In this document: piece after piece, positions 1,377 through 28,433 of the stretch | Numbering within the stretch: the stretch's first letter is position 1 | Layout of the letters: every line of letters begins with the position of its first letter | NCBI GenBank assembly: GCA_964534625.1 | Contig: CAZHRF010000038.1 | Location: 1 to 30,761 of the forward strand | Reading direction: 5' to 3' | From: an uncultured archaeon | GTDB lineage: Archaea > Asgardarchaeota > Heimdallarchaeia > Heimdallarchaeales > Heimdallarchaeaceae | DNA length: 30,761 bases | Translations under genes and position numbers: made by a program | Notes under the pieces: generated by a model | Seen by the model: only the letters and a program-made list of their open reading frames with translations | Told to the model about the DNA's origin: nothing | Databases searched by the model: none

Positions 1377-2257
1377 GCTACAATTACTGTAGTCAAGCTC
1401 ATTATCAGTGCTCCGACCGCAGGAGGAAGAACGAATCCCACACTATACAGAACACCAGCAGCTAAGGGTATGGTAATTATATTATATCCTGTGGCCCAGA
1501 AAAGATTTTGAAGGGTTTTTTTGTAAGTAGCTTTACCAAAACGAATAAGTGTGGATACATCAGTAGGATCATTTTCTACAAGTATGATATCTGCTGTTTC
1601 AGCTGCGACATCCGTGCCTGACCCTATTGCAATACCGACATCTGCTTGGGCTAAAGCAGGTGCATCATTGATGCCATCCCCCACCATACAAACAAACTCT
1701 CCTTTATCTTGTAGCTCTTTTACTTTCTCTTGCTTTTCATGGGGAAGTACTTCTGACCAATATCCTGTTATATTTAATTCTTCACTAACTTGTTTTGCGA
1801 CATTTTCAACATCACCAGTCAACATCCATACTTTTATCCCTTGTTTCTTTAATTCATTTACTGCTTGGAAAGACTCTTCTCGAATTTTATCAGCTAAAGA
1901 TACAGCACCAAGAGTTTTACTATCTTTTAATAGATAGACAGTAGTGGTACCCGTAGGCGCTTCATAATCAGTAGGCAAAGATATATCATTCTCACGTAAA
2001 TAACCTGGGCTTACAACTATAAACTCTTCACCATTGATTTTACCCCTTATCCCCTTGCCTTTAATAGCTTCAAAATCGGAGGAAGACAATTTTTTAGTAT
2101 TCTTTTCTTTAGCTTTTTTAATTATACCTGTTGCTATAGGATGTTCCGAGTTCGATTCAAGTGAATATGCTATTTGTAAAATCTTATTTTCATCGTAGTC
2201 TTTGGAAAAGGATGTAATGGAACTAACGCCAAATTTACCTGTAGTCAGTGTACCTGT
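1343..2257 (-). pseudogene. C-terminal half of a CopB-like P1B heavy-metal ATPase, truncated inside the DKTGT motif
   Basis: The frame extends upstream of the listed 2089 start as TGTLTTGKFGV...SEHP...; it also has MLTGD, GDGINDAPALAQADVG, YN and MSLTT motifs. Upstream of 2257 the frame becomes S/H repeats and hits a stop at 2312-2314, so D-K and the N-terminal TM segments are missing. Confidence 0.85.
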
Positions 2258-2258
2258 C

Positions 2259-2315
2259 GATGAAGAGTGGGATGATGAAGAGTGGGATGATGAAGAGTGG
2301 GAAGAAGAGGATTAA
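2259..2315 (+). repeat. 15-bp tandem repeat encoding an orphan acidic tail DEEWDDEEWDDEEWEEED*
   Basis: About 3 copies of gatgaagagtgggat, then TAA at 2313-2315 and a T-rich tract; abuts the broken ATPase directly. Confidence 0.8.
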
Positions 2316-2374
2316 ACAATCTTAACCTCTTTATTTCTAAACTTTTTTTCTTGCTCTTTTACATTTTGTTTTAC

Positions 2375-2421
2375 TAGACTAGTTTCTTGAAAGCCCTGTC
2401 CTTTAGGGTGGGGTAGTTCAT
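2375..2421 (+). mobile_element. 47-bp single-hairpin IS200/IS605-derived mini-element
   Basis: TTAC|TAGACTAGTTTCTTG-AAAG-CCCTGTCCTTTAGGGTGGGG-TAGT-TCAT: IS608-like left-end layout joined to a right-end TAGTTCAT like that of the 27598 element. Confidence 0.7.
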
Positions 2422-22632: not shown

Positions 22633-23913
22633 ATGAAATTTAAAAATTTTGATATACAAAATGATATTAAGAAAGCATTGAACAAAATGGGCATGCATAC
22701 GCCTACTGATATACAAGATGTAGCTATTCCTGAAATCTTAGCGAATAATAAGACACATTTTATTGCTCAAGCTAAAACGGGTACAGGTAAGACACTCGCT
22801 TTTGCTATTCCTCTTTTTGAGATGATTGATTCTTCTTTAGAAAAGGTGCAAGCAGTTATCATGGCTCCAACTCGTGAACTTGTCACGCAGATTTATGATG
22901 TTTTATATGATTTAAATAAATATAAACGCTTGAAACTATGCAAGGTCTATGGTGGTGTGTCTATTGATAGACAGATTAATCTTATAGCGGGAGGAGCACA
23001 AATTATTGTTGCTACTCCAGGTAGAATTATTGACATATACAAACGGGGAAAGGTTTCTTTTGACCATATGAAATATTTTGTACTCGATGAAGCTGATCGA
23101 ATGTTAGATATGGGGTTCATTCCCGACATAGAGTTCTTACTTTTTGAAGCTATGAAAGAAGTATATCCACGCTTGTATTTATTCTCAGCTACTATGCCAG
23201 AGGAAATCGTCAAGGTAGCTGAATCTTATGCATTCGATTGGGGAGATGAACTAATAGAAATCAAAGTATCAAGCGATGATGATTTAACAGTGCAAAATTG
23301 TGATCAATACTTCTACCAAGTTGAAGATAGAAATAAGAAATACAATAAATTTGTCAAAATTCTCCAAAAAGAGCGACCTGAATCGTGTATTGTTTTTGTG
23401 AACACAAAACACTGGGGAGATATACTTAAGAGGCTGCTTATTCGAGATAAAAGAGTAAAAATGTACATTGGAACTCTTAACGGTAACATGTCTCAAAGAC
23501 AGCGAGAAAAAACACTAGAAAAATTCCGTCAAGGAAAAATTGATTGTCTTGTAGCAACTAATGTAGCTGCTAGAGGATTAGATATTCCTCGTGTTACGCA
23601 TGTGTTCAATTACGATATTCCCGAGGGTAAGCCCGAAGTCTATGTACATAGAATTGGCAGAACATCACGAATGAAAAGTGAAGGGAAAGCTATTGCTCTA
23701 GTCGAAAGAGAGCAATTAGAGATGCTCTATGATATTGAACACCTCATTAATAAACAAATACAGCGTTATTATCTAGATTCTAGAGAAAAGAATCGTTATA
23801 AGAACCTTGTTCGTTCTTCGTCTAAAACAGCTGGAAAACAAGATAAAAAAGAGTTCGAATATGTCGATAAAGAAACCAAAGATGTCTACGCTGATGTTTC
23901 TATTTATGGGTGA
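22633..23913 (+). CDS. DEAD-box RNA helicase
   Basis: Q motif, AKTGTGKT, PTREL, GG, TPGR, DEAD, SAT, ARGLD and HRIGRT motifs. Confidence 0.95.
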   Translation: MKFKNFDIQNDIKKALNKMGMHTPTDIQDVAIPEILANNKTHFIAQAKTGTGKTLAFAIPLFEMIDSSLEKVQAVIMAPTRELVTQIYDVLYDLNKYKRLKLCKVYGGVSIDRQINLIAGGAQIIVATPGRIIDIYKRGKVSFDHMKYFVLDEADRMLDMGFIPDIEFLLFEAMKEVYPRLYLFSATMPEEIVKVAESYAFDWGDELIEIKVSSDDDLTVQNCDQYFYQVEDRNKKYNKFVKILQKERPESCIVFVNTKHWGDILKRLLIRDKRVKMYIGTLNGNMSQRQREKTLEKFRQGKIDCLVATNVAARGLDIPRVTHVFNYDIPEGKPEVYVHRIGRTSRMKSEGKAIALVEREQLEMLYDIEHLINKQIQRYYLDSREKNRYKNLVRSSSKTAGKQDKKEFEYVDKETKDVYADVSIYG

Positions 23914-24052
23914 ACTACACCACCCCAAGTGATGGTGCTTCTTGCGAGTACATTGCTTGATGTTGTATAACAAGGTCTGTTTGTCGCAAATTACCAATAA
24001 ATTGTTGATAGGCTGTCCACAAGCCATTCTGGGATAGGTACCGTTATAGTAC
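23910..24052 (-). ncRNA. Putative orphan TnpB-type omega-RNA scaffold ending in an IS200/IS605 right end
   Basis: Minus strand GTACTATAAC...GCTTGTGGA...CAA-GAAG-CACCATCACTTGGGGTGGTG-TAGT-TCAC; shares motifs with 27598-27720. The 5' boundary is approximate. Confidence 0.55.
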
Positions 24053-24153
24053 ATTCAAACAAAAAGGTAAATATTCAAAAGAACAAAATTCAGGATCAAA
24101 TTGAAAAGAATAAAAAAATGAGAAAAGAATAAAAAAATTCCAAAGATTCCTTC

Positions 24154-25518
24154 TTAGGCTTTTTCTTGTATCATTTCCATATCCAATTGTAATCTTTTAC
24201 TTTTAACTTTTCTAAGTGGTTTGGTGATAACAATAATCAAATGCTCAAAACCATACTTAAAATTTATTTTAGACCATAAATAGACAGCTAGAATCCAAAA
24301 ACTCGAAAAAGTTGCAATAAATAGAGATATGGCAGGAACATTCGTCATAAAAGCATTAATCTCCCCAAAGTTTTCTAAAGTACCAAAAGATCTATGAAAA
24401 ATAGCTGCAAAACCTTCATTGAAAGCAACCTCAAGCATATAGAGAGTCAATGAAGCCACCCCAAATCTTCTAACAAAGAGGGTTTTATCAGCTAATACTT
24501 GTCTTTTTTCTGTAGAAGTATATTCGAATTTCTTGAAGAGTATAGGAAATATAAACATTAAGCCACCCAGACTAAAGAATAACAATTCTCTAGGATAAAT
24601 TGTAAAGTTGAAGAGTGGATCAAATGGGTTTATGTCTGCCCTAATAGAAACTATTATTGTTAAAGTTGTATTAATAACAAAAGCTGCTAAAAAGACGGTT
24701 CCAGTTATGAAACTATATTTTTTAATTCTTGAATAGTCCTCTTTCCGTACCAATAAATAGCCTAATACAAGCCCAAACATGAGATATGCGCACATGGGGA
24801 AATATGAAAGCTGATTACCAAAAAACAAGATTCCTATATATGATACGAACGTAAAAAATCCACCTTTATTGAATAGGTTAACAATATGTTCATAATATAT
24901 ATAATCACTTAGTGGCTTATGAGTAACAGTTAGAATAATTCCTAAAATCGTCAAAATAATAACGTTTCTTTTCATCTCATCTATCCCTTCATTTCGGAAC
25001 AATAACCAGAAGATTACAACAGCTGTATACCCACATAATCCAATAGCTGGAAGTATACCTATTTTGAATAATTTCTGTACATTTGGCCAAGCTAATTCAC
25101 CTGTTTGATAAAGCCTAGTTAGAATTGAATAATTGATATATTCGTTATTGGGGTTGTTAAAAGGGTTATACCACGTTCTCGTAAAGAATAAACATTTAAT
25201 AGGGTCCAGAAGGATCATAAGCGTACTATTGAGAAGAATTGGTGTCGCGGCATCTTTGAATGATACTCCTCTTTTTAGTCTTCTGTACATGTTATAGGCA
25301 TTTACAACACCCGACATCATGACGAAACCTCCAGCCCACGTTGATAACAGGGCTAAAGGAGAAAGAAGGATGAGAATCGGAATTGGTAAAACTTGAATAG
25401 CATTTCCTGCCGTCCGCCATATTCCAAAAATTAGCGGATGAAAAAAAAGAACGCCGATAATTGCCCAACCTCTAAAGTAATCTATCGATAAGAGCCTACT
25501 ATCTTTGATCTTTTCCAT
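24154..25518 (-). CDS. Multi-pass membrane protein, DUF1624/HGSNAT-like acyltransferase N-terminal motif
   Basis: RLLSIDYFRGWAIIGVLFFH, late G..SLTLY motif, about 10 TM segments. Confidence 0.65.
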   Translation of the reverse strand: MEKIKDSRLLSIDYFRGWAIIGVLFFHPLIFGIWRTAGNAIQVLPIPILILLSPLALLSTWAGGFVMMSGVVNAYNMYRRLKRGVSFKDAATPILLNSTLMILLDPIKCLFFTRTWYNPFNNPNNEYINYSILTRLYQTGELAWPNVQKLFKIGILPAIGLCGYTAVVIFWLLFRNEGIDEMKRNVIILTILGIILTVTHKPLSDYIYYEHIVNLFNKGGFFTFVSYIGILFFGNQLSYFPMCAYLMFGLVLGYLLVRKEDYSRIKKYSFITGTVFLAAFVINTTLTIIVSIRADINPFDPLFNFTIYPRELLFFSLGGLMFIFPILFKKFEYTSTEKRQVLADKTLFVRRFGVASLTLYMLEVAFNEGFAAIFHRSFGTLENFGEINAFMTNVPAISLFIATFSSFWILAVYLWSKINFKYGFEHLIIVITKPLRKVKSKRLQLDMEMIQEKA

Positions 25519-27597: not shown

Positions 27598-27720
27598 ATG
27601 AACTACCACTGCCTAAAGGCAGATGGTTTCTTGTTTCAACGAAGTTGCCTCAAAATGAGGGCTTACCTCTTCTCCACAAGCGTAAGTTCCCGTAGTACCT
27701 ACGGTACAATGTTCTAGTAC
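27598..27720 (-). ncRNA. TnpB-type omega-RNA (reRNA) scaffold
   Basis: ACCGTAGGTACTACGGGAACTTACGCTTGTGGAGAAGAGG...CTTCGTTGAAACAAGAA plus right-end hairpin; reads TVGTTGTYACGE...SLKQE, the usual overlapping TnpB tail. Confidence 0.75.
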
Positions 27721-27986
27721 ACACAACGTACCGACTCTACATCGGAAGTCCTCAATACTCTTACTTAGGTCGATACATATACCCATTATCGTTGTTTAAT
27801 GTGTAGCCCTATCTTCTACTTCCATCTTTTTCTTTTTGTTTCGTACCACTCTTGGTTTTCGAGATGGTACCAAGACACGTACACAAAGACAGCATACTTA
27901 CAAAATGTTTGTATGCTAAAACGTGTATTGTTTTTTCTTCTTTTCATCCCCGCCCTCAAGGACGGGGTTTTCAAGAAGACGTTCAC
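27598..27986 (-). mobile_element. 389-bp non-autonomous IS200/IS605 element (both ends, no tnpA or tnpB)
   Basis: Left end TTAT|GTGAACGTCTTCTTG-AAAA-CCCCGTCCTTGAGGGCGGGG; right end GAAA-CCATCTGCCTTTAGGCAGTGG-TAGT-TCAT. Both guide/cleavage tetranucleotide pairs obey the IS608 pairing rule. Confidence 0.85.
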
Positions 27987-28433
27987 ATAAAAAAAATATT
28001 TATACAAAAACAGTTTAATTTTTGCATATACAAAGACTGCATATTTAGTTTGCAAATTTTGCATTTGTATTCCATGAGTCCCAGGGTCAATAGTACAATG
28101 AACCCGCTTACTGGCGTTAAGATCTTATTATTTAGCCTTGTCCATATCATCTGTGCTTCTATCGCCACAGGACCATTACGTACTTTTGTTCCTGGATTCT
28201 TCTCGTATACTCCTTGACTACAGGTACATCATGTTCCTCTTCGTCACGTTGCCAGTTGGGTGAAGTGCTACATTTTTAGAAAAGTTCCTAAAACTGCCTA
28301 AAAAAACTCATCGCAAGAAGAACTTGATCTTTACAATTTTTTCTAATTAGTCAAATTCAAAATATATTAAAAAAGTAATCTTAGTCTAATTTTTTTAGAG
28401 AATCTTTAAATTTGTTTAGAGAAAACGTTAATC

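Follow-up and report, generated by a model that had tools for sequence, protein, structure and literature searches.

A 47-nucleotide one-hairpin insert in a Heimdall-group Asgard archaeon as a probable collapsed remnant of an IS200/IS605-family element

The locus and the anatomy of the insert

The window, by which we mean the whole 30,761-nt stretch analysed here, is one contig (C38) of a Heimdall-group Asgard archaeal genome assembly of 3.37 Mb (32% G+C, 120 contigs, 89.8% complete). Between two convergent reading frames it carries a 47-nt insert (2375-2421, the preceding TTAC not counted), and the forward strand reads, in order, TTAC, 15 nt, AAAG, a hairpin, TAGT and TCAT (Table 1). The frame at 2202-2315 (+), of 37 aa and ending in ..DEEWDDEEWDDEEWEEED, corresponds, as a truncated paralogue, to the C-terminal end of a 151-aa highly acidic protein encoded on another contig, C89 (L031:490-945); approximately 160 nt of the gene end and the spacer are duplicated between the two places. 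The window further contains a gene-less PATE of the same family as the insert and a solitary right-end fragment of a sister subfamily. The latter abuts the stop codon of a DEAD-box helicase gene (22633-23913), and upstream of it lies a 454-aa ORF (24154-25518) that has no Pfam match and is not recognizable as TnpB; a right end near-identical to this fragment stands behind a TnpB-type match at C17:57025-57058. A search of the whole window against Rfam at gathering thresholds returned no family.

Table 1. Positions of the features in the window and of the related right ends in two other genomes
Feature	Position	Strand	Remarks
Segment duplicated on C89	2274..2479	+	3' end of acidic-repeat gene and downstream spacer; used for the empty-site comparison
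Target tetranucleotide TTAC	2371..2374	+	Flank, outside the element; insertion point 3' of C2374
Left-end linker, 15 nt	2375..2389	+	B-type leader TAGACTAGTTTCTTG
GAAA, candidate right-end guide (hypothetical)	2389..2392	+	Overlaps AAAG; 1 nt off the hairpin foot
Left-end guide AAAG	2390..2393	+	Adjoins the hairpin foot on its 5' side; complementary to TTAC under the IS608 rule
Chimeric subterminal hairpin, 8-bp stem	2394..2413	+	CCCTGTCC / loop TTTA / GGGTGGGG
Right-end tail TAGT (2414-2417) and cleavage tetranucleotide TCAT (2418-2421)	2414..2421	+	Together TAGTTCAT; element ends after T2421
Solo right-end fragment, sister subfamily	23910..24060	-	Guide GAAG, hairpin CACCATC/GGTGGTG, tail TAGTTCAC
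389-bp gene-less PATE, same family	27598..27990	-	A-type left end (TTAT, guide AAAA) and full right end
Minisyncoccia contig L064	tnpA 1201-1653; right end 1658-1689		
Woesearchaeota contig L083			Right-end motif directly behind Y1 tnpA

This layout is, to the base, the one given in a preliminary description of the window made from its letters alone, and reading both ends likewise bears out the 25-nt gap between GAAA and TCAT that it noted both here and in the full right end of the PATE (27598-27630, minus strand: GAAA, a 21-nt hairpin, TAGT, TCAT); across intact right ends the gap is 24-25 nt, with GAAA standing directly at the hairpin foot. The "GC hairpin" of the same description was overstated: the stem has five G-C and three G.T pairs, and as ssDNA a 55-nt stretch with the insert folds with -3.9 kcal/mol (z-score -0.08 against shuffles), compared to -9.0 kcal/mol (z -3.5) for an intact right end and -7.5 kcal/mol for an intact left end.

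Comparison with the ends of longer elements in the same genome, in which left ends read ..GGGCGGGG ATGAAAAG and right ends ..TTTA GGGTGGGG TAGTTCAT, indicates that the 5' arm of the hairpin is of the left-end type and its loop and 3' arm of the right-end type. The B-type leader recurs in a second one-hairpin copy (C3:129047) and in a solo left end (C60:13358). The linkers of the insert are asymmetric, with 15 nt between TTAC and the guide and 8 nt (TAGTTCAT) from the hairpin to the right end, and family-wide the linkers of IS200/IS605 elements are of 15-16 nt on the left and 8 nt on the right (PMC3597680). Instead of a subterminal hairpin at each end, as in its long relatives in the genome, the insert has a single one. 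An identical hairpin forms the right end of a TnpB element of Methanocella; from AAG through TCAT the two sequences are the same, with GGAAG preceding the hairpin in Methanocella.

An empty site within the genome

Searching the genome with the surrounding 700 nt, we recovered a paralogous segment at C89:5203-5360 that lacks exactly the 47 nt and is otherwise collinear with the window; with the flanks of the insert joined, the two are 93.5% identical over 138 nt. With a slash marking the insertion point, the empty site reads TTTTAC/TTTATT and the filled one TTTTAC/47 nt/TTTATT (in longer context ..CATTTTATTTTAC/TTTATTATATTG.. on C89 and ..CATTTTGTTTTAC/47 nt/TTTATTGTGTTG.. in the window), the paralogue picking up at TTTATT right after T2421. 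As the insert follows TTAC and there is no target duplication, we classify this as an insertion of the IS200/IS605 type; the lack of terminal inverted repeats is also characteristic of that family. The C89 site defines the boundaries of the insert only and does not distinguish its arrival as 47 nt from arrival as a longer element.

The preliminary description had pointed to orthologous empty sites as a check; the predicted joint, TTAC/TTTATT, does exist in the paralogue on C89, and none was found in 40 relatives, a set with no genome of the same genus and no DNA-level synteny. The repeat family itself was not found in these 40 genomes, save for one match with two mismatches. A joined-flank search with 22 of the one-hairpin copies in the same genome gave an empty site for the window copy only. 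Four microbial-mat runs from one study, which is probably the source of the assembly, contained only the filled allele and no joint skipping 2375-2421; these runs are kept as contigs, which drop rare variants, and the result does not address rare empty alleles. A scan of JGI metagenomes with the right-end motif gave nine loci, all from other organisms, and no strain-level relative; viral contigs gave no match.

The family in the genome

We took a census of the family by means of BLAST, pattern searches and an nhmmer profile built from the one-hairpin copies (hereinafter minis). The further copies that the preliminary description had proposed to look for were found: the profile recovered 29 minis with the full single-hairpin architecture, each packing into 42-47 nt the leader and guide of a left end, a single chimeric hairpin and TAGTTCAT, the tail of a right end. 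The other ends of the family amount to approximately 30 long left ends and 30 long right ends, belonging to TnpB/omega-RNA elements and to gene-less PATEs. All these counts are lower bounds, as the genome is 89.8% complete and many of its 120 contigs break inside these repeats; contigs ending inside left or right ends are C37, C74, C99, C57, C76, C112, C41, C70, C101, C113 and C114.

The main left end, the A type, has the form TTAT/TTGAACGTCTTCTTGAAAA/CCCCGTCC TTGA GGGCGGGG/ATGAAAAG.., and the B, C and D types have other leaders. Long right ends come in two forms, approximately 11 with GAAA, a hairpin ending in GGGTGG(G/A)G and TAGTTCAT, and 19 with a CTGCC/GGCAG hairpin, the commonest right end, which is also that of the PATE in the window (GAAA, CTGCC/GGCAG hairpin, TAGTTCAT). 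The tail TAGTTCAT terminates all right ends of the family, and the flanks diverge straight after it. Long copies that encode TnpB yield 11 PF07282 matches (e.g. C30:32983-34399, ~1.4 kb), and the gene-less PATEs measure 389-396 bp. The window mini is of the B type, with one close sibling, at C3:129043-129093 (insert from 129047; E 1e-18), that differs at two positions in 47 nt.

The census also brought up degraded copies of other kinds. At C31:2259-2548 a C-type left end (guide AATG), broken in the hairpin, has been joined to the 3' end of what remains of a tnpB gene, with an intact right end after it, which represents an internal deletion of approximately 1 kb that does not run from hairpin to hairpin; a PATE of approximately 160 bp at C58:1686-1850 (minus), longer than the 47-nt minis and shorter than the 390-bp PATEs, combines a C-type left end, a short 3' piece of omega-RNA and a right end. 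A separate repeat of approximately 75 nt (..CGGGGATAGGT..CACCAGCGAGG..TTTTTAT) has at least 20 copies, located at C7:31442-31521, C34:14790-14864, C8:57577-57660, C9:76472-76615, C39:8801-8937, C2:141159-141226, on C60 near 2750-2824 and in approximately 15 more places. In at least two places A-type left ends stand directly behind its terminal TTTAT, as if this were a preferred TTAT target, and the A-type mini at C7:31522 is flanked on its left by the copy at C7:31442-31521.

Guides, targets and the transposase

In IS608 the cleavage site is paired with a guide tetranucleotide located on the 5' side of the hairpin foot (PMC3597680), and the preliminary description had applied this rule to the window mini. 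TTAC or TTAT precedes approximately 58 left ends of the family and covaries with the guide: guides ending in G (AAAG, AATG, AACG) stand behind TTAC in approximately 26 left ends and those ending in A (AAAA, AAGA) behind TTAT in approximately 30. Since each insertion picks its own target the copies are separate tests, and with approximately 53 of 58 left ends conforming, against four or five exceptions, the rule holds across the family. At right ends GAAA accompanies TCAT, and in two copies GAAG accompanies TCAC. The contrast of these two combinations was considered as a clean right-end covariation, a reading that is weakened by the right ends of Methanocella and Methanoculleus, where GGAAG goes with TCAT; the combination of GAAG and TCAT implies that position 4 tolerates a G.T pair.

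The PF01797 HMM detected no Y1 TnpA in the 89.8%-complete assembly, and tblastn searches of the assembly with four TnpAs of relatives reached at best an E-value of 0.14 and yielded no TnpA; the region behind that value, C24:43214-43486, was rejected, being a 258-aa ORF without HUH-type features. A transposase-bearing copy could sit in unassembled sequence. Y1 TnpA is present in six of the 40 relatives. Furthermore, in two other genomes, of a member of Minisyncoccia and of Woesearchaeota (Table 1), a Y1 tnpA gene is immediately followed by the right-end motif (a hairpin ending in ..GGGTGGGG, then TAGTTCAT), and from this we conclude that the ends of the family are of a type used by Y1 transposases.

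Origin of the insert

Based on this comparison of ends, the reading of the window mini as a collapsed recombinant of the left and right ends of a resident IS200/IS605-family element, i.e. a terminal-only PATE, is well supported. The preliminary description had left it as one of two options, the other being a REP-like element mobilized in trans. The first is favoured by the diagnostic bases, in that the leader, AAAG and the 5' arm are those of left ends, the 3' arm and TAGTTCAT are those of right ends, and the junction falls within the hairpin, and also by the empty site on C89 and the family-wide guide rule; the second, along with the idea that one hairpin serves as both ends, has less in its favour, given that no Y1 TnpA was found in the assembly and that the variety of junctions speaks for collapse having occurred repeatedly and independently.

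These junctions are visible throughout the family. Every mini is chimeric: its bases are diagnostic of left ends as far as a switch within or next to the hairpin, and of right ends from there on. In the six A-type minis this switch lies four times within TCCTTGAGGG, the longest run common to the two ends, once after CCCC and once within GAAA, and the AATG-type minis fall into two junction classes; junctions that differ in this manner, with at least three classes in the A type, indicate repeated independent deletions. The minis also depend on the resemblance of the two hairpins: they account for 29 of approximately 40 right ends with the GGGTGG(G/A)G arm, which is similar to the left-end hairpin, and for none of the 18 right ends with context (19 in total) that have the unlike CTGCC/GGCAG hairpin. 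Moreover, the share of minis rises with the divergence of the lineage, for which differences per nucleotide over the 15-nt leaders serve as a crude measure: from 6/23 in A-type left ends (pairwise leader difference 0.016-0.022) through 7/12 in the AATG type (0.07-0.14) to 8/8 counted in the C-type with guide AAA(A/G) (0.17). Finally, the leaders of the minis are interspersed among the leader variants of various long copies. Taken together, the variety of junctions, the dependence on hairpin likeness, the interspersed leaders and the divergence gradient argue for recurrent repeat-mediated deletion of the element core. The C-type minis with guide AAA(A/G) were at one point considered a lineage of minis only, which would favour spread as minis; this was dropped because the nhmmer profile also recovered long left ends whose hairpin is very similar (C16:36985, C3:45600 and C8:55864).

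We accordingly propose, with a probability of roughly 0.7, that the insert arose through collapse by repeat-mediated deletion, most likely in place, and that the resulting stub is now inert. The anatomy shows that a family element (TnpB/omega-RNA, IS1341-like) inserted directly 3' of TTAC without target duplication, presumably as ssDNA and at a site picked through its pairing with AAAG, the guide of the left end. Family-wide patterns suggest that the whole interior between the two subterminal hairpins was then lost by slippage or recombination between these hairpins, which are direct repeats with 5-15 nt in common, so that only the leader and guide of the left end, a single hybrid hairpin and the 8-nt tail of the right end were left. 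The most likely setting of the collapse is the present locus, though it may predate arrival there. The stub is probably inert, because it has no omega-RNA scaffold, the assembly has no transposase, the stem contains three G.T pairs and the fold is at the level of shuffled sequences.

Alternative explanations

The explanation that competes most directly with collapse in place is that the 47-nt unit arose once by collapse and then itself transposed to TTAC with a Y1 TnpA acting in trans, one hairpin serving for both cleavages: AAAG would guide the left cut, after TTAC, and GAAA, which overlaps it, would guide the right cut, after TCAT. The window copy and its C3 sibling, as each other's closest relatives with the same junction, could have spread as minis, and no long element in the assembly, hence no candidate parent there, combines the leader of the B type (TAGACTAG..) and a right end of the form TTTA/GGGTGGGG; both points count against collapse in place. 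The gap from GAAA to TCAT is that of intact right ends, the stretch from AAG to TCAT is the same as in a working right end of a Methanocella TnpB element, and three AATG minis share a junction that lies in just 3 nt of common sequence. A precedent may be seen in ISHwa23 of Haloquadratum, where six of six strain-specific insertions are of the 52-bp form and the authors suggest that mobilization is possible (PMC3119063). Set against this, neither the HMM nor tblastn with the four TnpAs of relatives detected a Y1 TnpA in the assembly, and eight AATG/AACG minis have GAAT or GAAC at the shifted position, which lacks the GA.A motif and does not fit TCAT by the rule, so that the dual-guide idea cannot be general. 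GAAA occurs in ordinary long left ends as well, and hence is no adaptation of the minis. Decay in place accords with the multiple junction classes, with the age gradient and with the leaders that minis have in common with various long copies. The TnpA dimer binds the left and right hairpins together (PMC3597680), whereas here one hairpin would have to present both cleavage sites, and the hairpin of the window copy is weak (-3.9 kcal/mol). On this balance we regard transposition of the 47-nt unit as an unlikely though serious alternative, and the stronger proposition that the unit is a complete Y1 transposase substrate by virtue of the overlapping guides AAAG and GAAA as slightly more doubtful still. 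Were it true, no smaller transposon would be known, and the unit would form a natural link from IS200/IS605 ends to single-hairpin repeats of the REP type.

REPs resemble the subterminal hairpins of IS200/IS605 elements, and the insert, belonging to a short, intergenic, hairpin-bearing repeat in multiple copies, might on the face of it be a domesticated REP/RAYT-type repeat, i.e. a single-hairpin palindrome spread and maintained by a RAYT for a host function. We consider this very improbable: no Y1/RAYT gene was found in the genome assembly, all 29 copies are single units with no inverted pairs, each consists of left-end and right-end parts of TnpB elements resident in the same genome, and the copy number of 29 is not above that of the parent elements. 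The placement between convergent reading frames and a fold energy that is not better than that of shuffles could also suggest a chance hairpin or a terminator-like structure of the host unrelated to mobile DNA, a notion to which we give almost no credence, as chance is excluded by the presence or absence of exactly 47 nt relative to the paralogue and by 29 homologous copies with conserved ends.

Relation to known elements

Collapse by repeat-mediated deletion has a close counterpart. As documented between two strains of Haloquadratum walsbyi, core deletion between near-terminal palindromes yielded 52-bp terminal-only PATEs (Dyall-Smith et al. 2011, PMC3119063), to which both HqIRS46 and the 1.5-kb ISHwa23 had been shortened, and a possible mobility of the 52-bp form was already raised there (PMC3119063). 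The window mini shares with them a length of approximately 50 nt (47 nt as compared to 52 bp), a make-up of two joined ends from an IS605/IS1341-type element or PATE, a deletion between near-terminal palindromes that are direct repeats, the lack of inverted terminal repeats and of a target duplication, and a host genome with many tnpB elements and little intact tnpA. It thus has the features of a terminal-only PATE, namely fused termini with a junction inside a common near-terminal palindrome, a size of approximately 50 bp and no coding capacity. It differs in its host, a Heimdall-group Asgard archaeon as opposed to a haloarchaeon, and in the evidence, which here is a paralogous empty site in one genome and there was a comparison of two strains. 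Also, the run common to the left and right ends is of 5-15 nt here as against 19-22 bp there, which makes several junction classes visible here.

IS608 and ISDra2 belong to the IS200/IS605 family, whose Y1 HUH TnpA catalyzes single-strand transposition by "peel and paste". The mini resembles them in its insertion 3' of a tetranucleotide (TTAC, as in IS608), the guide 5' of the hairpin foot, the long left and short right (8 nt) linkers and the absence of a target duplication; unlike them it has one hairpin and no gene, no TnpA was found in the assembly, and the right cleavage site is TCAT rather than TCAA. Omega-RNA-bearing PATEs, gene-less IS200/IS605 elements, were reportedly described by Meers et al. 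in 2023. Elements of this kind, such as that at 27598-27990, are non-autonomous and of the same family as the mini, with the same ends and target rule, but retain both hairpins and the scaffold of the TnpB guide RNA (389-396 bp), whereas the mini has neither the scaffold nor the second hairpin. With REP/REPIN sequences and their RAYT (TnpA-REP) the mini has in common one short intergenic hairpin unit related to IS200/IS605 ends; REPs, in contrast, have a dedicated Y1 enzyme, often occur as inverted pairs and are not chimeras of the left and right ends of a resident transposon.

Conclusions

The window mini is a clean new example of the type of stub described in 2011 in salt-loving archaea, and not a new kind of element. 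The family provides unusually readable evidence that collapse depends on the similarity between the two hairpins, and demonstrates that the guide/target rule of IS608 also applies at a great distance from bacteria. In annotation such stubs should be treated as transposon scars, and should be mistaken neither for new RNAs or terminators nor for REP elements. A stub that a Y1 transposase could still move would be of wider interest. For the biology of the organism, the finding indicates that TnpB-carrying transposons of an Asgard archaeon decay by the same route as those of haloarchaea, with similar end hairpins recombining to leave a stub of approximately 50 nt.
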